Assembly (NCBI GenBank): GCA_951406725.2
Contig: OX597814.1
Location: 159,588,001-159,652,000 of the forward strand
Source of the DNA: Octopus vulgaris
Lineage: Eukaryota
DNA length: 64,000 bases
Direction of reading: 5' to 3'
Part shown: one piece after another, positions 8,198-64,000 of the stretch
How the letters are laid out: each line of letters starts with the position of its first letter
How positions within the stretch are numbered: the first letter of the stretch is position 1
Translations under genes and position numbers: made by a program
Notes under the pieces: model-generated
The model's database searches: none
What the model was told of the DNA's origin: nothing
What the model saw: only the letters and a program-made list of their open reading frames with translations

Positions 8198-8235
8198 TAT
8201 ATAAAGCGGTAAGTTTCAACTGTAAATTATTACTT
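8198..8235 (+). promoter_or_regulatory. Candidate core promoter of reflectin gene 1 (TATA box plus initiator)
   Basis: TATATAAAG at 8198-8206; TTACTT Inr-like motif with A at 8232, 32 nt after TATAAA. Mirrors the gene-2 promoter. Confidence 0.6.
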
Positions 8236-8290
8236 TCGAGAACAACCGTTCTTGCCTGTTCTTCGCTCGCTTCAAACCTTGTTTGTTAAG
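8232..8290 (+). other. Predicted non-coding exon 1 (5' UTR) of reflectin gene 1; intron 8291-13315
   Basis: ATG-free ~59 nt ending at donor AAG|GTGAGA. The matching acceptor has branch point CACTAAT (13284-13290), a pyrimidine tract and TTTCAG| at 13315. Confidence 0.55.
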
Positions 8291-8809
8291 GTGAGACAAA
8301 TTTATTATTATTCTACAAAACAATTTATCGAAGCATAGTAAATCCTTCATAAATGATAAAACATATTCTTTTAAACTTTTATTGGGTGGAATTGCAAGAA
8401 TTCTATATGAATATATTTTATTCTTTACATTTTGCAAATATAAGGTCCAGTACATTCTAATCATGCATGTTTCCTTTCATAAATTAACTTCTCTCTTACA
8501 TTAGTTTGTTTTCAACTCAATTTCATAGTCGCTAGTTTGTAATTGATTCCTATTCAATAATAATGCATTTTAGTGACTTTTAACACACAAATTAACACAT
8601 AATTTTGATATTATCTAAACACATGATGCGCTCATAGACGCTAATTATTATAGGGGGGATAATTTCTTCTAGATTAAACTAAGTTGAGCCAAGTTTGAAA
8701 GTTTGGAATTTAGAGTAAAAAAATAACGAAGGGTACAGAGCATATACATTTAATTTGTTTTCTACACATTATAAATTTCTTAAAGTATCTACTCATTGAT
8801 AGCTATATT

Positions 8810-9415
8810 ATTTACATTCGACGGATATTTGCCCTCATTTTGTTTGTTACGTTTCGTCTGATATACCCTTCTGCTTCTTCAGGTGTCTTGGGGGAAATTT
8901 CGAACCTGGGTTCTCATTCCTAAGCTATTTTTTCGATATTATTATTATTATTATTATTGTTGTTATTGTTCATGTCACTGCTTGGAATCGAACTCGGAAT
9001 CGTGCAGCTAGTAGCCCGCGCTTTTAACCACTATGCCATATGTCCACGGGCATATGGCATAGTGGTTTTTTGATACCATCAAAGTAATTAAAATTACTAT
9101 GTTTAGCAAGTCATTTAATATAATGACTTGCTAAACATAGCTGTGGGCTTATGGCGTAGTGGTTAAGAGCGCGGGCTTCTAACCCCAAGATTCCGAGTTC
9201 AATTCCAAGCAGTGACCTGAACAACAACAACAATAATAATAATAAAAATAACAACAACAACAACATCGAAAAATAGCTTAGGAATGAGCACCCAGGTTCG
9301 AAATTTCCCCAAGACACCTGAAGCAGGCTGGAGGGTATATAAGCCGAAACGTTGTGTTAGCAACAAACAAGATGAGGACAAATATCCGTCGAATGTAAAT
9401 AATGATATACAACTG
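8810..9415. mobile_element. Head-to-head inverted dimer of a tRNA-headed, hammerhead-tailed element, with 16-bp flanking direct repeat
   Basis: Left arm is the reverse complement of the right arm. A box TGGCGTAGTGG (9152) and B box GTTCAATTCC (9197). CATTGATAGCTATATT at 8794-8809 and 9416-9431. Confidence 0.8.
9313..9358 (+). ncRNA. Minimal type-I hammerhead motif (one core substitution)
   Basis: GACAC-CTGAAGC-A-GGCT...AGCC-GAAA-CG-TT-GTGTT. The sister copy at 19583-19628 (-) has intact CTGAAGA and a GGCTG/CAGCC stem II. Confidence 0.6.
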
Positions 9416-9754
9416 CATTGATAGCTATATTTAGCATTATTTCATCCTCCTTTGGAATTGCCAACACAGCATAACTTGAGACAAATAAATTAAGCTAAAT
9501 TTAACATTTTACGAAGTGATGTATATCATCGAGTAAAGATAGGTCATAGTTTAAAAGAGATACTTGAGTTTTTTCTTCATTCTATATCGTGAATTGTTCA
9601 GCAATAGAGAAGAGAAGGGAAGAGAGAGAGAGAGAGATTTCTTACATGTAGTTTAACATTTCCATAGTATTTAAAAAATGGAAAACTTAAATTATTCAGC
9701 ATATTTTATACTACTTCATTAATATACGACCACAAAAACATCATTTACTTTCTC

Positions 9755-9866
9755 GTTTGCTTCCCAACCACATGTTTTCGGCTTTGCACTTTGGGTGTCT
9801 GCTATTGTAGCTTCAGGCCGACCAAAGTCTTGTGAGTGGATAGAAACTGAAAGACACCTGTCGTAT
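9755..9866 (+). mobile_element. Partial SINE family C, followed by (CATA)n to ~10135
   Basis: GGCCGACCAAAG..TTGTGAGTGGA..GAAACTGAAAGA matches 27846-28257. Confidence 0.65.
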
Positions 9867-9895
9867 ACACACACATACATACATACATACATACA

Positions 9896-9929
<34 letters not shown>

Positions 9930-10769
9930 CATACATACATACATACATACATACATACATACATACATACATGCATGCAGGCATACATACATACATACAT
10001 ACATACATACATACATACATACATACATACATACATGCATGCATGTATGCATGCATGAATGCATACATACATACATGCATGCATGTATGCATACATACAT
10101 ACATACATACATACCTACATACATACATACATACATTAAATAAAACGACAACAAGCGGAAAATATGAGATACCTGTATATATATGTACGAGCAAAACGCA
10201 CCACCCCCCGTCCAATGGACGGTGCTGAGTTGTCAAACATTTAAATTAAATTTTCTCAAAACAACTTGTCCGTATAGTGTGTGTAAAAAACATCCTGATG
10301 AGGGGAGTTTCAATTTTGATAATATGAAATATATCTGACACATCTCTGAAACTCTAAATCGTTAAATCTTTAAACTCTAAATCTTTAAATTTTTGTTATT
10401 TTCGGAGGTTTTTAATACGTCCTTTTAATGTTTCATCATCCCAAATTTTTAATTATACCAATATTTTATAACTTTTAAAATGTAAATTCACGGTGTTTTG
10501 TGTATAACACTGACTTATATCTATTTATATATATTTTTATATCTTTATATCTGGAATTTATACATCCGTTTTGTAAATGTGGAAGAATATATGAATATAT
10601 GAATATATGTATCTATTTGGTCTTCGAGTGTTGGTCTTAATTATGTTTCTCTAGTTTCCGCTTGCATTACCTCCGTTCAAATTAAGAAGTGAAATATAGT
10701 TCACTTGGAGCACTACAACTCCAGCCTGTAATTTTGCGAGTATTGTTAACTCTAGCAATCTCAAAATAA

Positions 10770-11800
10770 AGCAAGAAGCATAGGAGAGCGGGTAAATGAG
10801 CATTGGAGACAAATCAAGTAAGGTAAAAGCTCATCGATTCTGTACCAACACGCCGAACAGGAACACGGGGGATCAATCAATAACATAGAAATTAAAATAT
10901 TATCCACACATAGATCAGATGCAACAATTAGATAAATTACAGAAGCTACACACATAATAGAAAATAAACCTAGCCTGAATAGAAAACTAGAATGGAGCAC
11001 TAACACACACCACAACATATGACGATAGAGGATCCTGAAAACATAATAAATAAACAGATAAATAAACTAATAGAAATAAATAACTATATATATATATATT
11101 TTTTTTTTCGATTCGTTTTATTATTATTATTACTAGTATTGTTGTTATACATACATACATACAAGCATATGTAATGATAATAATAAATGGATGTAAACAC
11201 ATGAACAAAATAAGAATAAACAAAAACAACAAAAACAAAAAAACAAAATACAAATTACATGAAAATTACATGAACATATATAAACAGAAGATACAAATAT
11301 TACAGGCATCCCCCCACATACACACACTAAATAAACATAGACGCACATAGAGATATAAGCACGCGCAAATGAAGACATATAATAGAAATACAAAATGGCT
11401 GACGGTTAGTAAGGAGAGACACAAATAAGAAAGAAGAAAACAAAGGACCACTGATGCGGTCACAGGAGTGTGACGAAAGAACTCTGGCCGAAATAAGATT
11501 AAGATTAATGTAAAAATAAATAACACTGAAGCAAAATAACACCAAATATATAGTGCGTGTGTTTTTATTGGCTAAATGTGTGCATGTATGTTCCCTTTCT
11601 CTTTTTTAATTCTGAGTTAATTCTGACTGGCCACTTGCTTGGTAGCAAAGTTGTGAAGGAAAGCGTCTTGTTTTGTTTATTATCTTTAAATCTTAAGAAG
11701 GCCTTGCAAAATTTTATAGTCCCAGATATTGTGATCATTTGTAGTGTATGAAGAAGTTGTGTTCTCTCCCCGAGAACCAAGTTGAGCCATACTTTGCTCT
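10770..11800 (+). mobile_element. Penelope-like element 3' remnant: GIY-YIG endonuclease C-terminus plus tail with degenerate hammerhead
   Basis: Translation SRSIGERVNEHWRQIK*GKSSSILYQHAEQEHGG...IKILSTH...IR*ITEATHIIENKPSLNRKLEW (10770-11000). CCA-CTGATGC-G-GTCAC/GTGAC-GAAA-GAACTC-TGG at 11445-11489. Confidence 0.7.
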
Positions 11801-11846
11801 AGAGAGATTGATATGTAAATTATTGCTGCAATAACAAAAAAAGTAT

Positions 11847-12183
11847 GTGGAAGGCTCATGGCTCAGTGGTAAGAGCGTCGAACTTACGACCGTGAGGTTG
11901 TGAGTTCGAATCCTGGACCGGGCTGCGTGTTGTATTCTTGAGCAAAACACTTTATTTCACGTTGCTCCAGTTCACTCAGCTGTAGAAATGAGTTGCGACG
12001 TCACAGGTACCAAGCTGTATCAGTTTTTGCCTTTCCCTTGGATAACATCGGTGGCGCGGAGAGGGGCGGTTGGTATGCATGGGCGACTGCTGGTCTTCCA
12101 TAAACAACCTTGCCCGGAATTATGCCTCGGAGGATAACTTTCTAGGTGCAACCCCACGGTCATTCGTGACCAAAAGGGGTCTC
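11847..12183 (+). mobile_element. tRNA-derived SINE with CORE-like central domain (family D)
   Basis: TGGCTCAGTGG A box, GTTCGAATCC B box, then TTCTTGAGCAAAACACTT...CACTCAGCTGTAGAAATG. Related minus-strand copies at ~16835-17060 and ~32810-33295. Confidence 0.7.
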
Positions 12184-12492
12184 CGAATAATAAGTATAAA
12201 ACTTAAAGTGTACTTTGGGTATTGGATTTGTAAATCCCTTATTAATGATTCATAAATGTCCTCTTTCTTTTGTATCTTACTAACCACACTGATATCCAGA
12301 GGCAGCTAATTTCCAGAGCATGTTATTTCATCGTGGTCCCATACAACGATATGTGTTCGGTTGTGTTTTTATTTGGTGGCTGCTTTAATTTTTAAGTTTC
12401 ACCAATATTCTTTTAATCTATCGGTCACACTATAGCCAACTTCATCTGTTGGTGATTTCTTTTTTGTATGTGTGTATGTGTGTATACATACA

Positions 12493-12524
<32 letters not shown>

Positions 12525-12525
<1 letters not shown>

Positions 12526-12716
12526 GACGGAGATGTATTTGCATAGCAAGTGACCTGATCTGAGATCGTGTGCTGGAACGAAAACAATTGCAGCGTGAGA
12601 GGTGTTTATAAGCCATTTAAGAAACACACAATTTAAATTTAAATGTTAAAGTGAATCTAATGGTTTTTGTGTGTTTCTTAAATGGCTTATAAACACCATC
12701 CACGCTGCAATTGTTT
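12525..12716. mobile_element. Short microsatellite-embedded foldback element; second copy at 20713-20849
   Basis: ~50-bp inverted arms at 12582-12631 and 12667-12716; the same leader (ACGGAGATGTA...GACCTGATCTGAGATCG) precedes both copies. Confidence 0.7.
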
Positions 12717-12799
<83 letters not shown>

Positions 12800-13347
12800 G
12801 ATATATAGATGGGTAGATACATTCATACATACATAAATATACACATACATGTATATATATATTTATACATATATATGTATATATAGAGATATATGCACAC
12901 GCATACACATACATGAATATATATGTGTATATATTTGTTATGATATTAGAGTTGACTAGTTTATTTAACCAGTGATCAAAGCTTCATTTCTAAGGTTTAT
13001 TTAGCAGTGATACCTCATTAAAAAGTCAGCATGATCAGGTAGTAATTTGCTTTGGATGTAAAAGTTACAAGAAATGAAGTTTTAATATTTAAATTTCTTG
13101 TTGGTAGAATTCTTATAACAATCTAATGTTGAAAAAGCAAGTATAATGGTAGATGGTAGCATTTGCATAGGTAACAAAATATTACAAAGCGAGGTGAAAT
13201 AGATATGTATTTGAGCATAAGTATTGTATAAGCATTTAGACTCACAGAAAACCTTCAGAAAATAAATATCCTATTGTACTTTTCACTAATTCCTGCATTT
13301 ATCCTTCAATTTCAGACACAGAGTTTGGTAACCAATTCTCTTCCATC

Positions 13348-14466
13348 ATGTACGGGCACGGATACAACGGTAGAATGGAACCAATGCACATGATGTCAAT
13401 GGACTTCCAAGGCAGATACATGGATTCTTATGGAAGAATGGTTGATCCCAGATCCTATGGCTTCTATGGCAGATATCATGACCAAGACAGGTACTATGGT
13501 AGATCTATGTACAACTATCACGGTTTCCATGATTTCAATAGGTTCCATAGATTTGATTATTTCATGGATTTCCCAGATATGTTTATGGATATGTCCGGTT
13601 ATCAGATGGACATGTATGGAAGGTGGATGGACATGCACGGACACTACTCTAGCCCCTACTCCTACATGTTCAATTCTTCAAGACATGGCTACAACACTAG
13701 CTACTACAATGGTCGTTACGGGTTCTATCCAGAGAGATTCATGGACATGTCCCACTACCAAATGGACATGTATGGCCGATATATGGACAGAAACGGACGT
13801 CACTGTAGCCCATATAACAACTATTACAGGCGTTATATGAATTATCCATATATGAATTTCCTGCATATGTACCATCCCGAGAGATCCATGGATATGTCCC
13901 ATTACCAGATGGATTTTAATGGTCATTGGATGGACATGTATAATCATTACTCCCATCCTTTCTTTGGTCACAACCATTACTATAGGGGGAGCCACTACCA
14001 CAATTATTATCCCCACTCTAACTACAGCTGGGGACATAGATTTTACAACTACCCAGAAAGATACTTTGATATGTCCCACTACCAGATGGACTTCAATGGT
14101 CACTGGATGAACATGTATGGTCATGGCTATCAACCTTTCCATTCATTCAATGGCTCCAACGCTTATCACCATTCGGGTAACAGTTACAGTTGGGGACATA
14201 GGTACCACAACTATTACGACATGTTCAATGATATGTCCCATTACCAAATGGATTTCGACGGTAACTGGATGGACATGTACAATCAATACTCCTATCCTTT
14301 CTTTGGTTATAACCATTACCAAAGAGGGAGCCATTACTATAACTATTATCCCCACTATAACTACAACTGGGGACATAGGTTCCACGACTACCCAGAAAGA
14401 TTCTTTGATATGTCTCACTACGAGATGGACTTCAATGGGCGCTGGATGAACATGCACAGATTTTAA
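13348..14466 (+). CDS. REF: Reflectin (372 aa; His-rich; N-terminal motif plus 6 reflectin motifs)
   Basis: N-terminal motif MEPMHMMSMDFQGRYMDSYGRMVDP; repeats of PER[F/Y][M/F]DMS[G/H]YQMD[M/F]xG[R/H]WMD fitting M/FD(X5)MD(X5)MD; Y/M/R/H/N-rich; A at -3 of the ATG. Confidence 0.97.
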   Translation: MYGHGYNGRMEPMHMMSMDFQGRYMDSYGRMVDPRSYGFYGRYHDQDRYYGRSMYNYHGFHDFNRFHRFDYFMDFPDMFMDMSGYQMDMYGRWMDMHGHYSSPYSYMFNSSRHGYNTSYYNGRYGFYPERFMDMSHYQMDMYGRYMDRNGRHCSPYNNYYRRYMNYPYMNFLHMYHPERSMDMSHYQMDFNGHWMDMYNHYSHPFFGHNHYYRGSHYHNYYPHSNYSWGHRFYNYPERYFDMSHYQMDFNGHWMNMYGHGYQPFHSFNGSNAYHHSGNSYSWGHRYHNYYDMFNDMSHYQMDFDGNWMDMYNQYSYPFFGYNHYQRGSHYYNYYPHYNYNWGHRFHDYPERFFDMSHYEMDFNGRWMNMHRF

Positions 14467-14581
14467 TTTTGTAATCAGACAAACGACAAGACTTTTCGGA
14501 AGTTCTACTGGCTAATGTTAACTGGAAACCTGACACAGTTTTTTAACGTCCTCAGTAATCGGACACATTTAAATATATATC

Positions 14582-14625
14582 AATAAAATTTTGTTGCAAC
14601 ATATGAATATCTTGTGTTGTGTTTC
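14582..14625 (+). terminator. Polyadenylation signal of reflectin gene 1
   Basis: AATAAA at 14582-14587 followed by GT-rich CTTGTGTTGTGTTTC at 14611-14625. Confidence 0.65.
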
Positions 14626-15309
14626 AATATTTTCTTTACAATTTTGTTTAATTCGTAAAATAAAAAATAATCAATGTAAGACTGACTACTTTCATAAACT
14701 TATTAGAATTATATTTATTAAGGTAATTCAAGTTTCCTTTCTATCCAATTTGTTACCACTATATTTAAGTAAAGAAACCATAGTTTTATACGATATATAA
14801 ATTGTATTGCCATTAGTTTGCAACCGCAGGTGACAGACTTAGATTAATTTGAAATGTTTAATTGCTGCTTGAACTCCTTTACCTTTAGAAATTGAAGGAA
14901 TACGTTGTGACTTTTTAAACTTTCTACATCTTTTTGCTGATTATTAAAAGGTATGATCATTTTTTTTTACCAATGTGTTTTAACAAATAAAATGCAGCAA
15001 TTTTAGAGTCATTCAAAAAATACAACAGAGTTACTGCAATGATAATACAATGAAATGAAAAAGCAATTCTAGGAAGTAAGAATAATGGTCAGATAAAATC
15101 ACAGTAAAGAATATCTGAATAAGTGTTATTAAATTTGAAAGGGCGTCATAGTCACATCGTCGCTTTTTACTGTAGTTGTATATAAAATAGAAACGAACTG
15201 ATAAATTTGGTTTATATTTGGGATAAAAGTTACCAAATGTAATAAATGCTCTAAAATTAATTTACTAGCATTGAGCTTTTGATCATCTTCCGGATATTGA
15301 CTGAAGTGA

Positions 15310-15400
<91 letters not shown>

Positions 15401-15500
15401 ACACACATATATATATGTATATATATGTACATAGATACAAACATACATAAGCATGTGTGTGTGTGTGTGTGTGTTTCTGTGTGTGTGTGAGTGTGTGTAT
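15310..15500. repeat. (TATC)n plus (TG)n microsatellites
   Basis: Read directly. Confidence 0.95.
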
Positions 15501-17830: not shown

Positions 17831-17928
17831 ATATATATATATATTTTTTTTTAATAAAAGGGTTAAATTAATTAATTAATTAATTAATTAACTAATCAAT
17901 TAATATATATATATATATATATATACAA

Positions 17929-18154
17929 GGCGGCGAGCTGGCAGAAACGTTAGCACGCCAGGCGAAATGCGTAGCCGTATTTCGTCTGCCGTTACGTTCT
18001 GAGTTCAAATTCCGTCGAGGTCGACTTTGCCTTTCATCCTTTCGGGGTCGATAAATTAAGTACCAGTTACGCACTGGGATCGATGTAATCGACTTAATCC
18101 GTTTGTCTGTCCTTTTTTGTCCCCTCTGTGTTTAGCCCCTTGTGGGTAGTAAAG

Positions 18155-18158
<4 letters not shown>
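17929..18158 (+). mobile_element. Full-length young SINE family B copy ending in (AT)n
   Basis: GGCGGCGAGCTGGCAGAAACGTTAGCACGCC...GAGTTCAAATTCC...TAGTAAAGAAAT; near-identical to 26308-26538, 51495-51727 and 56581-56812. Confidence 0.85.
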
Positions 18159-18205
<47 letters not shown>

Positions 18206-18209
<4 letters not shown>

Positions 18210-18625
18210 ATGTTACATTACTCGGTAGTCAAGATAAAACTCTGAGTTTCAGATGCCGAAGTGGAAATCCACAACACCATCTCTTCGGTTATCTGGCTAT
18301 TTGAAAACGTTATGAAAAAATACCGTTAAAAATGAAGGGAAATTACTCTGTTATAACTCTGCTTTGCCTGCGTACTTATACATCGCTCGCATTTTTCGTC
18401 ATAAAAATTATATAAAAATACATAAAAATATATAAAAATATATAAAAATATATAAAATCTTCTTGGGACATAACACAGAAAGCATGTTCTATCCGTTTTC
18501 TTTAGGGGACCAAAAACGTAACAGAAATTTAGTCACATGTGGGCATGATCCGAAAAGCTCTGTCCTTGTATTTAGACATGTGGTAGGGAGGTCTCTTTCT
18601 TTCTTTTGTTATCTTACCGTTTTAT

Positions 18626-18630
<5 letters not shown>
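18206..18630 (-). mobile_element. (TA)n-embedded element with hammerhead-like motif (18233-18293)
   Basis: Minus strand: GATAA-CCGAAGA-GATG...CATC-T-GAAA-CTCAGAG-TT-TTATC. A related foldback remnant lies at ~50200-50347. Confidence 0.55.
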
Positions 18631-18690
<60 letters not shown>

Positions 18691-18691
<1 letters not shown>

Positions 18692-19216
18692 CTCTGTGTG
18701 AAAAGTCTGGCTGCATCCGAAAAAATATATATTATGAAAGAAAAATATAAACAAAATTTATTACACGAATCTGTTACCACCACGACAGTCAACTATTTGA
18801 CGCCGAACACGAGTTTGATGTTGTTTCTACCAAGTTGTCTACTGGTTGCAGTACGCCTTTCACGAATAGCATTGACTATTCTTTCTTGCATAGCAGCATT
18901 TTTGACAAGGCTTGGTCGCACAGAACGCTGTTTTTGCTGTATTGTTCCACGAAGATTTGCATTTTTATAAATTCGCGCTGGTATATTGCGGTCTACTTGA
19001 AAGGCATTGCAAAGATCACTCACTGCTTCATTTGCGAACCCATCTTTAATTTGCTGGTAGCGTAGAAGTATTGCCATTCTATCTCTCTCACTAATTTGTT
19101 CACCTCGCCTGCGAGCCATCTAAAGTTAATAATGATTCTGCTAATTCCACGTGTTGTCAATTGTATGCACCTGACATATGCTAACGTGCATGCAAGCCAG
19201 ACTTTTCACACAGAGG
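18691..19216 (-). mobile_element. Internally deleted Tc1/mariner-like DNA transposon retaining the N-terminal transposase region (ORF 18793-19119)
   Basis: 22-bp TIRs CCTCTGTGTGAAAAGTCTGGCT / AGCCAGACTTTTCACACAGAGG within (TA)n; basic HTH-like ORF MARRRGEQISERDRMAILLRY... Confidence 0.7.
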
Positions 19217-19251
19217 ATATATATATATATATATACATATACAAACACGCA

Positions 19252-19310
<59 letters not shown>

Positions 19311-19526
19311 CTTTACTACCCACAAGGGGCTAAACACAGAGGAGACAAACAAGGACAGACAAACGGATTAAGTCGATTACATCGACCCCAGTGCGTAACT
19401 GGTACTTAATTTATCGACCCCGAAAGGATGAAAGGCAAAGTCGACCTCATATATATATATCTATATATATATATATATATACACGAATACATACACACAC
19501 ACATACGTACACATACATATATATAC

Positions 19527-29710: not shown

Positions 29711-29716
29711 TTTATT
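29711..29716 (-). terminator. Candidate poly(A) signal of reflectin gene 2 (alternative at 29511-29516)
   Basis: AATAAA on the minus strand ~95 nt after the stop codon. Confidence 0.4.
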
Positions 29717-29810: not shown

Positions 29811-31280
29811 TTAATAGTTGTAATTATCCCAAGAAGAGTAGAAATTCTGACCATCCATCCAACGGCCATCGAAATCCATTTGATTATTGAACATATCAAA
29901 GTTTCTTTCTGGATAGTCGTAATACCTCTGTCCCCAGTTGTAGTTGTAGTAGTTTGGGTAAGAGTTGTAATAGTGCCTGTTATGGTAGTTATAGCCATGG
30001 AAATTACGGCCATAATTATCCATCCAACGGCCTTCAAAATCCATCTGATAATTTCCCATATCAAAGTATCTCTCTGGGTAGTTGTAATATCTTTGGCCCC
30101 AGCTGTAGTTATAGTAAGGATAGTTATGGTGGTATCTGCCATGGTAGTTGTAGAAGGGGCTAGAATAACGGCCATAATTATCCATCCAACGTCCTTCAAA
30201 ATCCATCTGGTAGTTTCCCATATCAAAATATCTTTCTGGGTAGTTGTAATATCTTTGGCCCCAGCTGTAGTTATAGTAAGGATAGTTATGCTGGAATTTG
30301 CCATGATAACTGTTGAAGGGGCTAGAATAACGGCCATAATTATCCATCCAGCGTCCATCAAAATCCATCTGGTAGTTTCCCATGTCGAAATATCTCTCTG
30401 GGTTGTTGTAGTATCTTTGGCCCCAGCTGTAGCTATGATAAGGGGAGTTATGTTGGAATCTACCGTGGTAGTTATAGAAAGGTGTGCAATGACGGCTATA
30501 CGTATCCATCCAACGACCATCAAAATCCATTTGATAGTTTCCCATATCAAAATATCTCTCTGGGTAGTTGTAATACCTTTGGCCCCAGCTATAGTTATAA
30601 TAAGGGTAGTTATGGTAGTATCTGCCATGATAACTGTAGAAGGGGCTAGAGTGACGACCATAATTATCCATCCAGCGGCCATTCATGTCCATCTGATAAC
30701 CAGACATATCCATGAATCTCTCGGGATAGTACATATGAAGGAAATTCATAAATGGACAATTCATATAACGCCTGTAATAGTTGTAATAAGGGCTACAGTG
30801 ACGTCCATATCTGTCCATGTATCGGCCATTCATGTCCATTTGGTAGTGGGACATGTCCATGAATCTCTCAGGATAGAACCAGTTGCGACCATAGTGGTAG
30901 CCGGGGTAGTAACCATGTCTTGAAGAGTTGAACATCTGCCAGTGGGGGCTGGAGTAGTGTCCTTGCATGTCCATCCATCTTCCATACATGTCCATCTGAT
31001 AACCGGACATATCCATAAACCTCTCAGGGAAGTCCATGAAATTACCATATCTATGGAACCTATCGTTATCATAGAAACCGTAATAGTTGTACATAGATCT
31101 ACCATAATATCTATCATTATCAGAATATCTGCCATAGAAGCTGTAGCATCTGGGATCTACCATTCTTCCATAAGAATCCATGTATCTGCCTTGGAAGTCC
31201 ATGGTCATTCTGGACATTGGTTCCATGATACCACGGTATCTTCTGCTGAAATTATTTCTTCTGCTCATGTATCTGTTCAT
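29811..31280 (-). CDS. REF: Reflectin (489 aa; canonical MNRYM start, N-terminal motif plus 8 reflectin motifs)
   Basis: MNRYM...MEPMSRMTMDFQGRYMDSYGRMVDPR; eight PERxxDMxxxQMDxxGRxMD motifs; tandem 54-aa units. Confidence 0.98.
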   Translation of the reverse strand: MNRYMSRRNNFSRRYRGIMEPMSRMTMDFQGRYMDSYGRMVDPRCYSFYGRYSDNDRYYGRSMYNYYGFYDNDRFHRYGNFMDFPERFMDMSGYQMDMYGRWMDMQGHYSSPHWQMFNSSRHGYYPGYHYGRNWFYPERFMDMSHYQMDMNGRYMDRYGRHCSPYYNYYRRYMNCPFMNFLHMYYPERFMDMSGYQMDMNGRWMDNYGRHSSPFYSYHGRYYHNYPYYNYSWGQRYYNYPERYFDMGNYQMDFDGRWMDTYSRHCTPFYNYHGRFQHNSPYHSYSWGQRYYNNPERYFDMGNYQMDFDGRWMDNYGRYSSPFNSYHGKFQHNYPYYNYSWGQRYYNYPERYFDMGNYQMDFEGRWMDNYGRYSSPFYNYHGRYHHNYPYYNYSWGQRYYNYPERYFDMGNYQMDFEGRWMDNYGRNFHGYNYHNRHYYNSYPNYYNYNWGQRYYDYPERNFDMFNNQMDFDGRWMDGQNFYSSWDNYNY

Positions 31281-32809
31281 ACTGGATATTAGTAGTGATC
31301 TGAAATATATATAAAAAAAGATGTTTCAATAATGGAAAAAAGTTAATTTTACAAACTAATGAAATAATAACTATACAATAAATGTTTGTATCACATACTT
31401 GACTAGTCGTAATTAACAGCTTACCTAAAATATATTAACCCTATTAATTTGCTGAAATTTTTTAATATAATAGATAAATAAATACTGGGATTGATTTTCA
31501 AGCTCTTTCTAAAGTTAACAGCTAAAGAAATGTAATTAAAAGTATTATAGTCGAAAACTGAAACGAGATTGTTCACTGATTGATGTTCATTGTATTATAA
31601 AGTGAGAAATATTTCATGAATGCCAAACTCGAATTAAATAGCATACAAAACTGACATTATATTCAGAAAAGCATTTGGTTTTTCTACATCATGGTTTGAA
31701 AGCTTACGAAAGCTACAATTTAACTATACTGTGAGACTAACTTAAACGTTAAATCGTCCCTTACAAGTAAAATTAATATATTTTACATTTAAAGGATTCA
31801 ATCACGAAGCTTTCGTTATATGAATAGAGTTTGGAATATATAACAACAACTATCTAGAATAACAGTCGCAATTTATAGAAGGAAAGTTATGTTGCATTAG
31901 TATTTTCATATACTACATATTTTCATGTACTTCTTCTTCAAATGCTCATGTAAACATATAAAAAATACGTTTATAAGTAATTACGTCTTGGACTGGTTTC
32001 TTGCTTATTAAGAACAGAATTTGTTATTTCACAGTGTTCACTCGAGATAACTAAGAATCAAGATAACTAAGACGAGATAAGATTAAAATTGTGATTCGTG
32101 AATAATTGAATATTTTTGTTGTTTTATGTTATTAAGAGCACAGTGATTCTAGAATTCTACTCAAGGCCTTCTCATTTCTCATAATGTTGTCACTTGTCAA
32201 TTTTTTACTAATAAGCGGCTGAACGAATGCTTATTGTCTTAACTACAAATAACTCCTGGAGTTTCATGCTAATTTAGACAAAAGTTTCTCTGAGCTATTG
32301 TTGTCTATTGCCTACCCAGAGAAAAATTCTCCTAAAACCACAGCCTAAACACTTGTGGAAAGAGAGAACCCATTAGGTAAAGCAGTTCGACATACAGGTC
32401 ATGAATAGAATTCCTTTGATCATTGGTACAAAATATCAACAATAGCAACAACAATAACAACAAACGAATTCTGTACTTAAAAGACAGAATATATGAATTA
32501 GTAATATACTGCTATTTATGTCATCAACCATGAAGAAACGATCCAAAAGAGAGCTTCTGTATTATTACCCGCCCAGTTAAAATGACAACTAAACTTTCCC
32601 CAAACACCCCTTACCATCTCATTAGAAGATACATTAGCTAATGTCACCAAAAGTATTATAGGTGTATCTACTTATCAGGGCTTATGTGGGACCGAAACAA
32701 CAAAAGAACGGTCGCCCTCAAGAAAAAAAAAAAAAAACGGGATGAAAAATAAACACTACATCAATAAGACAACGTAATGGACTTAGAACTTATAGAAACC
32801 CCAGGAATC

Positions 32810-37250: not shown

Positions 37251-37321
<71 letters not shown>

Positions 37322-37804
37322 GATTGTCTTAACTGGTACATCACACGTATTGAGAAGAGCATTGTCGATGTGAGAACTGTTGCTGCTCATGTATTTTAAT
37401 TTAACTTAAAAAAAAAAAAAATGAACGAACTACTGAGTTTGGTTTAATGGCCTACCAATGTATACTATGAGTTTCTTTGCCCTAGGAGTCGGGAAGACAC
37501 TCGGCAAGAAATGGAAGCAAATTTGAAAGAAGAAAAAAAAAGTAATAATAATAATAATAATAATAATAATGATAAAAATAATATATATTTATTATTATAT
37601 TTATTATTTATATTTATATTATTATAAATTATATTTATCTTGATATGAGATCACCATGTCGCGCACATATGGTTGTGATGCATGTGCCTAGTGTACCCTT
37701 ATAAGACGGGTAGTCTTGATGGGTATACTGGGCTTCGTATATTTTACCCCAGTGTCACTTTGATGGCAAGCACTGCTCTCTCACTTAATAATAATAATAA
37801 AAAA

Positions 37805-40003
37805 TTCTGGTCAAAGATTCTGGTCAAACATATGGTCCCAGGAGAAACAACACGAAACTGAAGCAGAGCGGTTAAAGACTGTCAAAGAGGAGAGTAGAGA
37901 GTATCAGCAAGAGGATTTAAGAATAACCGAGGAGATGATTAGAGATCAATGCAGAAAAATTCCTAACTGGAAAGCGCCTGGCCCAGGACAATTGTGAGAC
38001 AGCTGGACGAAATACTGAATAGTGACATTCAAGTACCGACCTGGATGACAAAAGGAAGAACGGTACTATGCCAGAAGGACCCAAGTAAAGGGAATGCGGT
38101 TGGAAATTTCCGACCAATATCTTATTTGCAACTGATGTTGAAACTGATGACGGGCATCATATCAAACTGCATCTTTAAGTACCTAGATGAGAACGATCTA
38201 CTACCAATGGAACAAAAGGGGTGTAGACGTAAGAGCAGAGGAACAAAGGATCAATTTCTAATCGATAAGACTATCCTGGCTGATTGCAAGAAGAGACACA
38301 AAAAATTGGCGATGGCATAGGTAGACTACAGGAAAGCATATGACATGGTCCCACACTCGTAGATTATTGAATGTCTTAAACTGCTTAAGGTCTCACACAA
38401 TATCCTGAAGCTAATACAAAAGTCAATGACAACGTGGTGCGCTGAACTCACAGCATGGAGAGATAAGCTGGGAGAGGTAAATATCAAAAGAGGAATTTTT
38501 CAAGGGGACAGTCTGTAGCCTCTCATATTTGTTGTCTGCACACTGCCACAAACGAGCGTTTTAAGAAAGCTGCGTGTAGGGTACATGCTAAGACTGAGAA
38601 AAAATTGAGAGTTTGACGACATCTGTGCAGGTGATTAGCAAGAATATTGCCATGGAATTTTGGATTGAGAAATGTTGTACAATGATCCTCAATAGGGGGA
38701 AAATCAGTAAAAGCTATGGGATCAAGCTGGAAAATGGTGAAACTATAAGGGAAGTCGGAGAGGAAGGACATAAGTACCTAGGTATCATTGAAAGAAATAA
38801 GATGAATGAACACAAGGTGAAGGAAATGTACAGGAAAGAGTATTTGAGGAGAACTCGGCTTCAGCTCCAATCGAAGCTAAATGGCCGCTATAAGATTGGG
38901 CAGTTGCTTTGATGAGATATGTGGAAAGAATAGTATCTTGGAAGAAGCATGAATTACGAGAGATAGACCGGAGAACACGTAAATTAATGACAATGAATAA
39001 GGAACTACACCCTAAGAGTGATGTGATAAGATTACATGTAAAGAGGAGGGAAGGAGGACGGGAATTAGTGTGATGTGAAGGTTGTGGAAAGGAAAAGGAG
39101 AGTAGCCTGGCCTGGTATGTCAGGGAAAATTCAGGGAACCTTTAGAGTGAACGAAGCCATAGATCCAAAACAATTTAAGAGAGACCAGAGAGAGCAGGTG
39201 AAGAAAATATGGCAGGACAAAAAAATGCACAGTCAGTTCTTGAAGAATAAAGATGAGATTAATTAGAATAGAACCTGACAATGGCTGCAGAAAGGAGACG
39301 TAAAAGGGCCAACTGAAGCATTAGTGTGCAGCGCTCAAGAACAAGCTCTCAGAACAAACTACTCCAAATATCACATTGATAAAAACACTGACTCGCCACA
39401 GTGTAGGATGTGCTCTGAGAAGGGAAAAAAGTATAAGCCATATTGTTAGTGAGTGCTGAAAGCTCGCACAACGCAAATATAAAAGGAGATACGACAATGT
39501 GGCCAGATATATCCACTGGCTGTTGCACAGTAAAGCAAACCTCGAGAGAGTCGAACAATGGTATGAACACAAGCCGGTATGAATACATGCAGTGCGACCA
39601 AGTTATAGAGGCGAGAGGACCAGATATCATCTCATTCATAAAGATGAGAAAGAAGTAAAGATACCAGGCGACTCGAGGGGGAAATGTAAGGAAACAGAAA
39701 GATTGAGAAGTACCAGCCACGGCGGGACGTTATGGAGCATGAGGAAAGTAATGATGATACCGGTGGTAGTAGGAGCATTAGGAGCAGTTTCCAAGGGCTT
39801 TGAAAGACATATAAAGAATATTGGAGCTGCTGTCAGGCCCGAGGTGATCCAGAAGACAGCATTGTTGGGTACAGCTCTCATTTTAAGGAGAGTATGGTCT
39901 CTTTGAGTCACAATAATCACTACTTGAAACCTTTGGTGATTTGTTGTTGCTTGCTTTCAAGTAAAGAATAACTTGTAATTAAGAACTATCTGAGAGTATT
40001 TCA
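37805..40003 (+). mobile_element. Decayed R4/Dong-clade non-LTR retrotransposon (RT plus restriction-like endonuclease)
   Basis: [74 protein letters not shown] and IPVVVGALG motifs with stops and frameshifts; flanked by (TAA)n and (TAG)n. Confidence 0.88.
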
Positions 40004-54445: not shown

Positions 54446-54483
<38 letters not shown>

Positions 54484-55179: not shown

Positions 55180-55224
55180 AATCTTCGTATCTGTCAGAGA
55201 ATAGAGTAATCAGAGGATTATTAT

Positions 55225-56985: not shown

Positions 56986-58790
56986 AATGAAGCGTTTTTG
57001 CTCTTTTAAAATTTACCAATTAAGTAGAAAATTTTTGAAGTAATTCAGAAATATTTCCTAATTATAATTTCACGAGAAAACCTTCGATATCATTCTCTCA
57101 GAATATACGAATAGTATTATTGATATTTCAGAATAACAGTATAATACTTCTAGAGACTACGGTATTCTAGCAAATGTGCTTACCTAACCGTTTTCTGTAC
57201 CTGTGTGGCGTGTGGGCGATTCTAATGTACAGAAGATTAAGAAGAAATAAAACGGGAAATCGTTGGCATATTAATATATATGTAGTGGTTAGAAGCAACT
57301 AGAAGTAGATAATTAACGTCCATAACAAACAAGAAAAATTGTAGGAAACCGATCCTTGCGTTACAGCAAAGGTAATAGAATATAAGTCGGAAATAAATCA
57401 TCAGCAAACTTTGCTGTGATTTGGTCTCACAGTAAACAGCCAACTTAAGTGATGAGTGGTGCATTAGACGTAGAAGTAGTTTTTATATCTCCGAAGTTGT
57501 TATCATACGACCAAAGATAACAGATTTGGTTTTGTAAAATTCTCATGAGTGAGAAACAATTAGGACCTAACGTAAAGAAGTCTCCGGCTCCAAAGGTTTG
57601 TTGTCACAGAGCAGGGAGAGATACTGAAGTTTGTTACCAACCGATTATTCAACTGCTTGAAGTTGCTGCGTGAAGGAGACGGAACCGTTGTTAGCAGCGT
57701 CAGATAATTTTTTTTTGTTAAATGGCCCATATTGCTATATATTTCAATATTTGTTTCATGATTCCTGTCGAGATAGAAATAGTGAAGAGTCTGGGGAAGA
57801 TACAAGCTTGCTCTGTAGCAAAATGTTAAGGGAAAGATCAACAATTACACTTTATGGGACTAGTGACTTATCTATCGTTTACCGGGCGACTGCGTTGCCT
57901 GTTAAAACACATTGAATTTGATCACATTTATCACCTTTAAGATGCTGGTGCGAAAGACATCGGTCAACAGTTTGTAGGTTCGAAGATATTGCAATTACTG
58001 TTTCCAATTAGTGGCTATACGTACCTGTAAAAAGGTAAAATTAAGCTTGTTGGCTAGAATAGTAGACACCTCTGGCAAATATTGTGGCAAAGTGATAAAA
58101 TTCATCAACCGAGGCCAGTTTGTTGAAAGCTGACATCAATAGCAACTTCGCTTGCAATGGTTTACCTGTGCAGATCTGTAAATTCAAGAACTAGAGTGGA
58201 AGGATCCATTAAAGGCAGACGAGAACTCTCATCGCTTACATTTATTGAATAATTGGTGTCTGTAGAACATTTTAGAAATGGTTACTTTCCTGACTTAAAT
58301 TTCATTTTACCAAACTTTCATTTACAGATGTCTAGTTTATTAATAAGCAACTTATTCCAATTAATTTGAATAATTACTGGCTGTATGTCTTAGTAAATTT
58401 TCAAAAAAATCTACTTCTGAACACTATAATCAAATAAAGTATGGGGGAACATAAAAATAAAGAGCTTTCTCAGACTCATAAATAATTCTTATTCGATGGC
58501 ATGGATAATCAACGTAGAATTGGCTTAAAACCAGTGGAATAACCAAGAGCATCGTATGTATTCTTTCATAAGTCTCGAACTTAGGATTACGGCCATATAG
58601 GAGCACCACTTTGAAAAGTATTAGTCAACTGTATAGACTCCAGCGTTTATTTCAGCTTGGTACATATTTTATCAATCTCCAGTCATCGAATCCCTGAGGT
58701 ACGTTCTTTGTCAAAAAGTAGCTTAACTTCATATGCTGATAACAAAGACACACATGAGAATTATTTGAAATCCATTCTCCCCGATTGTGC

Positions 58791-59272
58791 AATTCTTATT
58801 GACATACAGTCATAGCATCGACTACTAAGTGAGTCATTTTACTCATTCAGGGATTAAATACCTCGGTCAGATGGACTAAGAACGAACTGCTTGGAGTCAA
58901 GTATATCTATCTGTTCCATAACCACTGGCATGTATTTAAGCGTCCCAACTTATTTACAAAGTAGAGAATTCTGAAGATATTTTACTACCATTATAAGACA
59001 ATTATTATTTCTTGATGGAATATGAAGCGATCACGTCTTTCCTTTGTCCGTCTCTGTTGATTTATATTCAACCATTATCTCATTAGTTCAACAACGTCTG
59101 ATAAGGTGAATAGTTATTGAAGCATCTTGATATTCCGCTAGGAAATTTTTGACAAATATTTCATATTTTCTTCATGTCATATATTTCTTTCCATTTGTTT
59201 AATTCTCATTGATATAGAGTCATAGCATCGACTACCTGTTGAGTAATGCACTCTCAGTGAATAAATATCTCG
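58791..59272. repeat. ~410-bp unit bounded by ~72-bp imperfect direct repeats
   Basis: AATTCT(T/C)ATTGA(C/T)ATA(C/G)AGTCATAGCATCGACTAC... at 58791 and 59201. Confidence 0.6.
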
Positions 59273-59376
59273 CATAGATTAATTAATGTTGTTTCGCCTA
59301 TGTTCATGTGTGTGTATCGTTTATCCAATATGTATGTGTGTCTGAGCACATGCTCGTGCGCATATGTATGTATAAT

Positions 59377-59411
<35 letters not shown>

Positions 59412-59699
59412 GTTGAATAAGTCGCCATTATGTGAAGTTCTAGTCAAAATGAATTTGATAATAAATTTGACTCTACCTTCAATATTTAATCTTCTCATTA
59501 GTAAGTGCTCTGTTATTCTTAAATTTATATTGAAATAGTAACCTAAATATACCACACACACACACACCTAGTGAAATTTTATGATGGTGCCTCCAGCATG
59601 GCCGCCCTGTAGTAACCGAAACAAATGAATAATAAATACATGGGCATTTTTATGCGTTAGTTAGAAAAGGAAGGACAGTGCCCATTAGTTTTCTAAGCT

Positions 59700-60790
59700 T
59701 TCCTAGAAAGGAGACCAGTTGAACACCTGCAATAAACATTTGAAAACAAAATTCGAGCAGGGAAAGAATTCCAAAGGATTACTTCTCTGTAGAGGAGTGA
59801 TTGGGTGATGGAACACAGACAGCAGCGGGATTACATGAATGAGTTGAGTATGTGTAAGTACACGTGGTATGTGCTCTTCAAAGGGCCAGAGACTTGCAGT
59901 AGCAGTTAAAGTGACAAAGAGCATCATATTTCTCAGCTAGGTGTTGTTGCGTGGTTCTAAAGATTGGAACAGATTCTTGTTGAGGGAGAAATATTGAATA
60001 GTTTGGAAAGTAGGGGTATTAGGTATGGGATATACTATTTGAACGAAATAGTTTGGACATTGTGACGACCTGTGTGTACATGATTGTTAGGCATCTGGGA
60101 CGGACAAAGAAAGTTATCGAGAAGATTTAGCAAGCCTACGCAATGTTGTGTTAGAGGTAAAGTGGTCTGCGATTGTTGTAGTTTTCTCAGCAAGAGAGCC
60201 ACTTACAGAACCATTTTGCCAAGATGTCAGACATTTCTTGGAAAGTGAAGAAAAGGAATTGAAGGCTGTGATGAAAGTTTCTCGTGCTGTTCTGATGGTT
60301 GCCTTGCAGGCATTGCAATCATGAGTAAAAACCTCCCAAATGTTGAAAATGGGCGATTTCTTCCAGGTATTTCAGAGAGTTTTCTTTTATTTGCCCAAAC
60401 TGCTACAATACATACAAGCAGTTACAGGGAAATCATTTAGCAGATTTTGAGTCTTAGGATTTGATTGCGTGGGGAACAAAAGAGAACACGCTTATGTGGT
60501 TGGCTTCGATCACTCGTTTAATTGTCTCAGACAGGTTGAAGACAAAGTAAAATTCTGGTCAGGTATAGTTGTCATGGAAACCGACGGAAGTCCCCGGTCA
60601 TTTCACTGGCTTGAATTACCAATGAGTATAAAAGATGGCAGGGGTTGTGAAGCATGAGGTTTTCTGGAAGTTGGTCCGGTGGGTACATAAGTGTTCTGTA
60701 GGTATATGCTAAAACATAGTCAATGATGTTTGTAGTGTCATGAATTTGGATAGCTGATGATATTATATGGTGTAAGCAGTTGAAAATGGC
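59700..60790 (-). mobile_element. Possible ancient LINE (CR1/Jockey-like) remnant
   Basis: Higher-GC, coding-like composition with weak motifs (TIADHFTSNTTL); no clear catalytic motif. Confidence 0.3.
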
Positions 60791-60802
60791 TCCAGACATT
60801 AT

Positions 60803-60838
<36 letters not shown>

Positions 60839-61419
60839 ACACACACACACACACATTATTATTATATAGAATAAGAATCACTTTTAACCATTTAAGAACA
60901 CACATAAATTTCAAATTTCTTCTATTTTTTAATGTTCTTCCTAATCTTGGCACAAAGCCAGCAGTTTTTAAGGAATGGTGCAAGTCGATCACATCGATCC
61001 CAGTACATGACTGGTATTTAATTTGTCGACCTCGAAGGATAAAAAGCAGAGTCGACCTTTTGAAGTAAGATAAAAATTTCCTTCCACTTTGAGACCAGCT
61101 TGAGTGATATTAATACAGCTTAGTCGTTTTAAAATTAGAATGTACACTTATACTTAATCTTGATGTCCGTGCTTAAGCATATTTAAGTCAGTGTTTCATA
61201 TTTAGAATATAAAGTTCCCATAGCGTTTACTGAATATTCTTAGGGATAACTGATGAAGCGGCTTACATTAAAAGTGTTGGTAATACGATCGTACGTCAGG
61301 AGTTGGTGACAAATGTGTCCTTTTTAAACGCTGCACGGTTGCCCCTAACAGAATAAAAATCCAAATACATGATATAAAATACAGTGCCAAAAGGAATAAA
61401 TGAGGACGACAACCGTTCT

Positions 61420-62338
61420 ACTGTTTGAGAGAAGAGAAGACTTTATTTACGAATGTGTACAAAGAGAGAGTATGGGTACTAGCAAAGTGGAGTGTCTATG
61501 AGCATGTGACAAGTGTTTGTGTCTGTGTGTTCGTTTGTGCGACAGAAGCTGCATGCGTATAAAACAGAATACAGAGCATAAGATGAATCTCTCAGCATAT
61601 TGAGTTAAGATGGAATTAGTTTACCAGTTCGTGAGTTTATAGCAATAGTTCTGTAACAAGATGTTGGGGTCACGAGGCAGAATGCTGGTTGGACACATGT
61701 CGTGTAGCGGTTGTAGCTTCAATGCCGTGCCGAGTCTCTTGATACAGGAAGTTCTTTCAGGTAGACTGGAACTGTTTACCTCGTTGAAATATTCACAACA
61801 GCGTGGAATTTAAACCTGAGCGAATGCTGTGTACGTATTTGAAGTTGACGGTGTTAATGGCGACGGTGGTGGAGACGTCCTACGTTGCTGGAGTATATTA
61901 GCGTCGTCATGGCTGGATCAGGAACAGGATTGGCTGACTGGTCGTCTGTCGCTAGAACTGGAACATGACTGAATCGCTCGGTGGTCAGAGGTTAGTCCTG
62001 AAAAGGACTGGAACCTAAGACTGGTGTTGTTGGAACATGGTTGAGTGCTCTGTGGTTAGTGACTAGACCTTAGAAGTTCTAGAGCCAAAGACCTGGAATA
62101 GTGAATGCTGGCGCCTTATAAAGCCGGGGGTAGGCTCAAACAAGGCATGAGAAAAAACAATGTCACGAGACCTTATCCAAAGATCGTGATTGGTTGGCTT
62201 GCACACTGGCGCGAAATAAGTTGAGAGACAAACTGCGCCAATGCCAACCAATCAGAGCAGTGGACACAACAGGGTCAAACTAGCCAAACATGGTTGTTAT
62301 CTCACACAAGATCATTTCTAATATATCTCTCAAACAGT
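61420..62338 (-). mobile_element. Solo-LTR-like element
   Basis: 13-bp terminal inverted repeat ACTGTTTGAGAGA / TCTCTCAAACAGT (TG...CA inside), CCAAT boxes, TATA-like TTTATAAGG (~62120, minus) and AATAAA (61442-61447, minus); no clean TSD. Confidence 0.5.
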
Positions 62339-62546
62339 GAGGATATCACTGACGCTACAGAAGTATTGAGTCTCAGTGAAACGTTTTCACGAAAGTCAAG
62401 TAATTAGCTTTGACATCAAGGACAATGTGAATTCAGAGAATTCATTCTTCTGACGAAAAAAAATTACATGCTATAACAAAGTTAAGAACAATAACAAAAG
62501 TAACAAGGACAAAAACAACAAATATTCGAAATATTCAATAATTAGA

Positions 62547-62556
62547 TTTATTTATT
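62547..62556 (-). terminator. Poly(A) signal of reflectin gene 3
   Basis: Overlapping AATAAATAAA on the minus strand, followed by GT-rich TGTTGTTTTTGTCCTTGTT. Confidence 0.6.
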
Positions 62557-62684
62557 TCAGTTATATAATAGATTGATAATATTTGTTGAAGCACTGAAGA
62601 AGGAAATAATTACGTTTCATTTCAAATTTTGGTATAAGAAATAAATATTCGTTCTTATAGGATTTCCTGTACGCTGATTTATTA

Positions 62685-63989
62685 TTACCAGAAGTTATCG
62701 CTGCTATAATTATTCGAATCCATCCAACGACCATCAAAATCCATCTGATAACCGGACATATCAAAGAACCTTTCAGGGTAGTCTTGATATCTCTGACCCC
62801 AGTTGAAATTATGGCTTTGAGAGGGATTGCTGTTTTGTTGGTATCTATTAGAGTGATTGTAGTTACCGGAGAAAGGCTGACACTGACGATCATCCATATC
62901 CATCCAATGACCATCGAAATCCATCTGGTAGTTACCCATATCGAAGAGCCTCTCTGGGTGCTGGGTATATCTTTGACCCCAATTGAAATGATGAGGGAGG
63001 CTGTGCTGATATCTGCCATGAAAGTTATTATAGCCATAGAAAGGATTAGAATAACGACCATACATATCCATCCAGCGACCGTCAAAATCCATCTGATAAT
63101 TGCCAATATCGAAGTTCCTATCTTGGTATCTTTGACCGTAACTGAAACTGTTTTGAGGTTGGCCATGATGCTGTCTTCCTTGGTTGTTGTTGTTATAACC
63201 ATTGAAAGGCGACTGATTACGGCCGAACATATCCATCCAGCGACCATCAAAATCCATCTGGTAGTTGCTCATATCGAAGTATCTTTCTGGGTAGTGGTAA
63301 TATTTTTGACCCCAATTGTAGTTGTAGTGAGGGTACATGTTATAACTGTATTGTTTACCATAATAATTGCTATTATCATAGAATGGGTGGCAATGGCGAC
63401 CGTAGGTATCCATCCATTTTCCATCAAGATCCATCTGATAGTTGCTCATGTCGAAGAACCTATCTGGGTAGTTAACGCCTCTTTGACCCCAGCTATAGTT
63501 AACATGAGGGTAATTCTGATGGTGTCTGCTACCATAGTTGCTGAAAGGGCTTGAATAACGACCATTTGAATCCATCCAGCGTCCATGCATATCCATTTGG
63601 AAGTTGGACATGTCCATTAATTTCTCAGGGTTGTACATATGGTAGTTTTCATAGTTGTTGCTTGGATAATTCATATGACGTCTGCTATAGGGATTGCAGT
63701 GACGACCGTACTTGTCCATATAACGGCCACGCATGTCCATCTGGTACCCAGACATGTCCATATGTCTTTCAGGGAATTGCATAAAGCGACCATGCTTTTG
63801 GAATTTATCATTGTCATAAAAGCCAGTGTTGTGCATCGACCTGTAGTTGGAGTTTCTACCGTAGTAATCATTACACCTAGGCTCGACAAGTCTTCCGGAA
63901 GAATCCAAGTATTTTCCTTGGAAATCCATTGTCATTCTTGTCATTGGTTCCATGACACCTCTGTGTTTTCTGCTGCTATTACGAAACAT
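62685..63989 (-). CDS. REF: Divergent reflectin (>=434 aa; variant N-terminal motif plus 7 reflectin motifs); true start may lie beyond the window
   Basis: MEPMTRMTMDFQGKYLDSSGRLVEPR; seven DM/IxxYQMDxxGxW/YMD-type motifs; the frame is open to the window edge (..SRN-M). Confidence 0.95.
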   Translation of the reverse strand: MFRNSSRKHRGVMEPMTRMTMDFQGKYLDSSGRLVEPRCNDYYGRNSNYRSMHNTGFYDNDKFQKHGRFMQFPERHMDMSGYQMDMRGRYMDKYGRHCNPYSRRHMNYPSNNYENYHMYNPEKLMDMSNFQMDMHGRWMDSNGRYSSPFSNYGSRHHQNYPHVNYSWGQRGVNYPDRFFDMSNYQMDLDGKWMDTYGRHCHPFYDNSNYYGKQYSYNMYPHYNYNWGQKYYHYPERYFDMSNYQMDFDGRWMDMFGRNQSPFNGYNNNNQGRQHHGQPQNSFSYGQRYQDRNFDIGNYQMDFDGRWMDMYGRYSNPFYGYNNFHGRYQHSLPHHFNWGQRYTQHPERLFDMGNYQMDFDGHWMDMDDRQCQPFSGNYNHSNRYQQNSNPSQSHNFNWGQRYQDYPERFFDMSGYQMDFDGRWMDSNNYSSDNFW

Positions 63990-64000
63990 ATTTCTGGAAC

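Follow-up and report, generated by a model that had tools for sequence, protein, structure and literature searches.

Three intact reflectin genes lie in the stretch of Octopus vulgaris DNA analysed here (contig OX597814.1 of assembly GCA_951406725.2, positions 159,588,001 to 159,652,000; 64,000 nucleotides, hereafter the window), and are referred to as genes 1, 2 and 3 in order of position. The analysis favours, with a probability of about 0.6, the reading that they are long-diverged canonical reflectins whose products are likely to condense into high-index reflectors and to differ from each other modestly, gene 1 in its predicted response to pH, and genes 2 and 3 not in charge but in stickiness. 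The locus itself is real, intact and of an already known type, reflectin clusters having been published for octopods, squids and bobtails.

The window is AT-rich animal DNA (35.5% GC) with many microsatellites, in which exactly three long non-repetitive open reading frames (ORFs) with reflectin motifs are found under the standard code, all uninterrupted. The ORF calls agree with the three single-coding-exon genes of 372, 489 and at least 434 residues given in a preliminary description of this DNA, and the single coding exon, like the clustering of the genes, is a feature of reflectins. The convergent orientation described for genes 1 and 2 (stops 15.3 kb apart) and the tandem arrangement of genes 2 and 3 (same strand, 31.4 kb apart) also hold. 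Each protein contains one copy of the N-terminal motif MEPMSRMTMDFQGRY(M/L)DS.GR(M/L)V(D/E)P, the consensus reported for canonical reflectins (PMC11931252), together with repeat motifs of the form M/FD(X)5MD(X)5MD(X)3/4. The described counts of 6, 8 and 7 repeat motifs are recovered with a relaxed pattern; the strict pattern M/FD(X)5MD(X)5MD gives 3, 8 and 7, because several gene 1 motifs end in MN or start with ND. The composition is likewise that of canonical reflectins, with Ala, Ile, Leu and Val together accounting for only 3, 3 and 11 residues in genes 1, 2 and 3 and Met for 8.5-11.8%. Canonical reflectins further have cationic linkers, the N-terminal one strongly so; linkers are cationic in gene 2 and, save for the last one (R+K 4, D+E 4), in gene 3; those of gene 1 are weakly cationic unless His is protonated, and its leader contributes one Arg. 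A reflectin identity is further sustained by homology (E 1e-36 to 1e-76) to Sepia reflectin 1, Doryteuthis opalescens A2 and S. pharaonis reflectin 14, the homologue searches having returned 7, 10 and 5 proteins for genes 3, 1 and 2, including named Sepia, Doryteuthis and Loligo reflectins and octopod proteins; in BLASTP gene 1 is 63% identical to an Argonauta hians protein and 55% to D. opalescens A2.

The non-canonical reflectin B/C type, which has no repeat motifs, Tyr-poor linkers and a proline-rich region, is ruled out by the 6-8 motifs and by Tyr contents of 11.5-19.8%. Pfam at E<=0.001 gave no family for genes 1 and 3, and for gene 2 only a sub-cut-off match to Formyl_trans_C_2; seven PDB profile matches (E 0.33-0.52), all to Sindbis capsid, were taken as chance. 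None of gene 1, gene 2 and the edge-cut gene 3 was present in the protein collection by exact look-up. ESM Atlas carries the products of genes 1 and 2 letter for letter, which shows deposition only, and offered no usable feature match or model for either. No further reflectin-like stretches, fragments or pseudogenes were found in the window by a six-frame motif scan or by tblastn, the latter returning only microsatellite matches. Among the retrieved proteins, P0013, P0016, P0017 and P0020 (757-1270 residues, two families) hold degenerate reflectin motifs inside unrelated sequence, and are possibly reflectin-like genes with other roles.

The preliminary description suggested that the three genes may not be redundant copies, and such divergence is supported at the level of sequence: synonymous divergence (dS) is 0.30 between genes 1 and 2, and synonymous sites are near or at saturation towards gene 3. 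Over an ungapped block of 187 codons, 150 of them identical, genes 1 and 2 differ with a nonsynonymous divergence (dN) of 0.11 and a dN/dS ratio of 0.35 (Fisher p=1e-4), while units 3 and 5 of gene 1 differ with a dN/dS of 0.097/0.373. A tree of 13 N-terminal blocks places gene 3 with its orthologues (100/100), and joins genes 1 and 2, Argonauta hians and a 344-residue octopus type as another octopod group (95/88). Most deep forks are unresolved in a tree built from the DNA of 18 linker-motif units; there, unit 1 of gene 1 pairs with unit 1 of gene 2, and unit 2 likewise (100/99 and 95/95), gene 3 lacking the first of these units. Toward the C-terminal end, a unit of 54-59 residues has expanded independently in each of the three genes, as seen in the grouping of gene 1 units 3 and 5 (98/95) and in the 162-nt array of gene 2, a recent expansion of the C-terminal linker-motif unit. 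Recent gene conversion is rejected for the regions compared (dS at least 0.30; between-gene unit identity 52-78%), and the copies, judged from these comparisons, are old, constrained by purifying selection and not homogenised. The shared N-terminal blocks of gene 1 (13361-13963) and gene 2 (30638-31240) also constitute a 603-nt inverted repeat of 85% identity, 16.7 kb apart; it is pure speculation that read-through RNA could form a long duplex in which adenosine-to-inosine editing would turn His codons into Arg.

Gene 3 has a probable orthologue in O. bimaculoides, XP_014779611.1 (P0008, 442 residues), with which it shares 399 of 436 aligned residues (91.5%). The ORF runs open to the window edge, and from its internal Met (63989-62685, minus strand) encodes 434 residues; since the orthologue begins MNRSRNMF and its SRNMF lines up, in register, with the end of the window, the full product is likely to have 440 residues, with the start 7 nt past the edge and the first three codons outside the window. 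XP_014779611.1 retains the length, the seven motifs and the composition of gene 3 (composition test p about 1), so this make-up can be regarded as a stable trait. The label under which NCBI lists it, 'TBC1 domain family member 5 homolog A', is rejected, no RabGAP-TBC domain being detected by Pfam; it is likely a mistake caused by low complexity, and one that keeps octopus reflectins out of reach of searches by name. The 344-residue type is represented in O. bimaculoides by XP_014779614.1, with an O. vulgaris/sinensis counterpart that is 93.9% identical; the two O. bimaculoides accessions are three apart, which suggests that they belong to one cluster. As the 344-residue type, with its neighbouring accession, is absent from the window, the O. 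vulgaris cluster likely extends past it.

In composition, genes 1, 2 and 3 contain 10.5, 4.7 and 5.8% His, 7.5, 10.4 and 8.5% Arg, 17.7, 19.8 and 11.5% Tyr, and 2.7, 3.9 and 7.1% Gln, with Lys at 0, 0.2 and 2.1% (0, 1 and 9 residues). A three-way chi-square gives p=1.3e-4 and the comparison of gene 1 with gene 2 p=0.18, values that are optimistic as the repeated units make residues non-independent. Only two of 15 uncorrected Fisher tests pass 0.05/15, namely His between genes 1 and 2 (p=0.0013) and Tyr between genes 2 and 3 (p=0.0006). The strong differences in His, Lys and Arg that had been described are thus upheld for His, of which gene 1 has about twice the share; the Lys counts lie a few residues apart, and a strong Arg difference is rejected (p=0.15-0.7). 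Computed from residue counts only, with a His pKa of 6.5 and other pKa values chosen by the analyst, the charge per 100 residues at pH 4.5, 6.5 and 7.4 is 10.8, 3.6 and -0.6 for gene 1, 7.7, 3.2 and 1.2 for gene 2, and 8.2, 3.1 and 0.7 for gene 3, the profiles of genes 2 and 3 being near-identical. The same computation for squid A2 gives 7.1, 3.3 and 1.9, and, at pH 4.5, 9.0 for A2 with five added His (A2+5H) and 10.9 for A2+10H.

Gene 1, which is inverted relative to the other two and has evolved faster, is the notable member of the cluster. Among 21 reflectin-like sequences, a set that leaves out four long proteins with embedded motifs and does not include squid A1, its His share is the highest, above gene 2, gene 3 and all 18 others (0.6-7.0%). 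Its C-terminal half reaches 13.6% His with 5.1% Arg, and its leader has 9 residues with one Arg, compared with 15-25 residues and 5-7 Arg/Lys in seven other leaders. The N-terminal hexapeptide (13348-13365, plus strand) recurs at residue 256 (14113-14130), at the start of the fourth linker. When changes are polarised against P0002 and P0009, 22 are derived on gene 1, six on gene 2 and nine are ambiguous (p=0.004); six of the 22 lead to His (p=0.0006 or 0.018 at an assumed rate of 5% or 10%), including in the non-repeated N-terminal block. This excess of change, the lost leader and the worn motifs, of which only three of six fit the strict pattern and three have PERF replaced (by PDMF, PERS and YDMF), could be taken as signs of relaxed constraint and slow decay in gene 1. 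Such decay is improbable: the frame is intact over 372 codons, dN/dS has the values given above, both against gene 2 and between units 3 and 5, aliphatic residues remain absent, and the changes lean to His over random residues.

It may also be considered that the copies were retained for bulk output and are interchangeable, the differences in composition being a by-product of repeat-unit duplication that amplified chance substitutions. The expansion of units within each gene, the nearly equal charge profiles of genes 2 and 3 and the p=0.18 between genes 1 and 2 would all fit, and dosage is the reading favoured for Argonauta in PMC9635652. This explanation is nevertheless considered rather unlikely, since the copies show no homogenisation (dS 0.30 or more), the His gains of gene 1 extend to a block that is not repeated (the six of 22 changes already mentioned), and the make-up of gene 3 persists across species.

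How the three proteins would assemble can be predicted from squid work, in which reflectins have been described as disordered block copolymers whose assembly size is set by linker net charge density (10.1101/456442). Salt and charge have been reported to drive reflectin phase separation (10.1101/2024.11.26.625517; PMC11427776), Tyr/Arg-rich linkers to drive arrest (10.64898/2026.08.27.747642), and reflectins A1, A2, B and C to form multi-compartment condensates (10.64898/2026.03.13.711711). In acid reversal experiments A2 showed none, A2+5H was borderline and A2+10H reversed (10.1101/456442), and paralogue-specific assembly is already established for squid reflectins (10.1101/456442; 10.64898/2026.03.13.711711). 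By extension, each octopus protein would be a disordered block copolymer with assembly set by linker net charge and by Tyr/Arg stickers. Because all three compute near neutral at pH 7.4, they would be condensed by default at cell pH, as static reflectors. Gene 2, with eight motifs and the highest Tyr content, would provide the stiffest scaffold, and gene 3, with less Tyr and Gln-rich linkers but a charge profile like that of gene 2, a softer one, so that these two would differ in sticker density and valency. In gene 1, fixed positive charge would have been swapped for titratable His and the cationic leader lost; as its computed charge at pH 4.5 is close to that of A2+10H, and those of genes 2 and 3 are nearer to A2 and A2+5H, it is predicted to be the only one reversed by acid in vitro. 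Being already neutral, it would not be open to triggering by phosphorylation-driven neutralisation. The different assembly triggers proposed in the preliminary description are hence predicted for gene 1 versus genes 2 and 3, and not between genes 2 and 3, which share a charge profile.

A stronger version would have gene 1 as a neofunctionalised histidine-switch reflectin, in which Arg and the leader were traded for His after the inversion and assembly responds to local pH or metal ions rather than phosphorylation, as a tunable reflector unlike loliginid A/B/C. This is a highly doubtful proposal, and several observations weigh even against the modest differences proposed in the favoured reading of three condensing canonical reflectins. 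The charge rule rests on squid experiments at low salt, with pH standing in for phosphorylation, and D. opalescens A1 is not among the sequences compared. Genes 1 and 2 do not differ significantly in overall composition, near-neutral charge at pH 7.4 is not special to gene 1 (P0001 -0.7, P0002 -0.1, P0011 -4.9), and gene 3 has a Tyr share equal to that of canonical A2 (12.6%) and well away from that of reflectin B (5.8%). P0002 and P0009 are not strict outgroups, and the tree places gene 1 closer to these references than to gene 2. Much of the His excess lies in three repeat units of shared descent and so reflects fewer events, and a Tyr-to-His change needs a single T-to-C substitution. Finally, three homologue searches and a full-library search retrieved no orthologue of gene 1 or gene 2.

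It is also possible, at somewhat less than even odds, that the paralogues are split mainly by site of expression (skin iridophores, leucophores, iris or eye, possibly neurons) and that protein differences are secondary, a view partly compatible with the favoured one. Reflectin paralogues have been reported to differ in expression domain in Euprymna scolopes (PMC6386654) and between cell clusters of Loligo vulgaris (PMC9839350), and the three genes of the window have no recognisable flanking sequence in common; on the other hand, most E. scolopes reflectins share two or more domains (PMC6386654). Of the 24 sequencing runs listed for positions 13200-15000, 20 contain part of that segment and none is recorded as RNA; these runs are given no weight as evidence.

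Table 1. Reflectin genes and candidate signals in the window (window coordinates).
Feature	Position	Strand	Remarks
Gene 1 reflectin, 372 aa	13348..14466	+	N-terminal motif and 6 repeat motifs; lacks Lys, with His at 10.5%; leader short and near-neutral
Gene 2 reflectin, 489 aa	29811..31280	-	N-terminal motif and 8 repeat motifs; Tyr 19.8%, Arg 10.4%
Tandem array in gene 2	29853..30699	-	162 nt (54 codons), 5.2 copies, 82% matches; unit identities 80-93%
Gene 3 reflectin, edge-cut	62685..64000	-	437 codons inside; N-terminal motif and 7 repeat motifs; Gln 7.1%, Lys 2.1%, Tyr 11.5%
Candidate TATA box and non-coding first exon of gene 1	8198..8290	+	AAG/GTGAG donor at 8290; would imply a 5.0-kb intron in the 5' untranslated region (UTR)
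TTTCAG acceptor-like site, gene 1	13310..13315	+	32 nt 5' of ATG; with pyrimidine tract
TTTCAG acceptor-like site, gene 2	31300..31305	-	19 nt 5' of ATG; with pyrimidine tract
Candidate poly(A) signal, gene 1	14582..14587	+	First AATAAA after stop
Candidate poly(A) signal, gene 2	29711..29716	-	First AATAAA after stop
Candidate poly(A) signal, gene 3	62551..62556	-	AATAAA 128 nt after stop

Among the candidate signals (Table 1), AATAAA occurs within 130 nt of the stop in all three genes. TTTCAG has a frequency of 5.2e-4 per position, so that a match within 40 nt of the ATG has a chance of about 2% per gene; on this basis a 5' UTR intron is likely in genes 1 and 2, the pattern having been spotted post hoc. 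The TATA-plus-donor pattern proposed for gene 1 is not above chance, with one instance in 1-13300 versus 0-5 in 40 Markov controls. The 56-nt segment 5' of that TATA box (8073-8128) is duplicated about 1 kb downstream at 9067-9122, with 98% identity. No first exon was located for gene 2; a weak TATA-plus-donor candidate at 57280 (minus strand; null 0-4 in 20 controls) and the best local match, at 37311-37412 (minus strand), which lacks a proper donor and, on visual inspection, falls within the remnant of a retroelement, were both rejected.

Elsewhere in the window, positions 1-1642 (minus strand) hold two overlapping ORFs of 170 and 413 residues with a reverse transcriptase-like stretch, and a GIY-YIG-like motif at the window edge; Pfam gave no match, and the pair resembles a Penelope-type retroelement. 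A degenerate element resembling a LINE (long interspersed nuclear element), with a strong strand skew, occupies 37300-40000 (plus strand), with a weak RVT_1 match (E 0.013) at 37967-38317. Inverted arms of 189 nt, 98% complementary and 1054 nt apart, are found at 18017-19448, built of a repeat that is dispersed through the window; they flank an ORF of 108 residues (19119-18793, minus strand) which, with no supporting Pfam match, resembles a Tc1/mariner DNA-binding region. Rfam returned no matches.

Among known systems, the cluster of Argonauta argo (Aargo020153-6) is alike in that its octopod reflectins are single-exon genes in tandem, a divergent one among them being inverted relative to the rest, and differs in that its copies are 97% identical via gene conversion (PMC9635652), whereas those of the window are old and distinct; other octopus clusters are named in that paper's Fig. 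3A legend, and O. bimaculoides and O. sinensis appear in Fig. S5. D. opalescens A1 and A2 share the N-terminal motif, the repeat motifs and Tyr/Arg/His-rich linkers, and differ between themselves in His and hence in acid reversibility (10.1101/456442). They have five and three motifs as against 6-8 in the window genes; compared with them, gene 1 is net-neutral at pH 7.4 and has no cationic leader, and no B/C-type partner is found in the window. Tandem reflectin clusters are also reported for D. pealeii (17 genes in three clusters; PMC9068888), E. scolopes (PMC6386654) and Architeuthis dux (PMC6962438). Relative to the squid and bobtail clusters, the C-terminal unit WG[Q/H]R..YPERYFDM.NYQMDF.G.WM and its expansions appear octopod-specific among 15 aligned sequences. 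A 2026 preprint on eight O. bimaculoides and nine O. vulgaris reflectins, with identities of 16-99% inside each species, describes the reflectins of octopuses as poorly classified and poorly characterised (10.64898/2026.04.14.718489), and its supplement may list these very proteins and their compositions. A literature search, from whose reach subscription papers were excluded, found no account of a His-rich octopus reflectin, 'histidine-rich' there referring to beak proteins.

Neural tuning of iridescence has been described as a trait of loliginids alone (10.64898/2026.03.13.711711). Taken by itself the cluster contributes little, reflectin clusters being published and genes 1 and 2 being already in a public protein atlas. 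The charge rule derived from squid could nevertheless be put to a natural test at this locus, where it predicts reversibility for one paralogue and places the other two close to irreversibility. Should gene 1 prove to switch with pH or metal, this would be relevant to the question why tunable iridescence is confined to some cephalopods, and would provide a new building block for reflectin materials.

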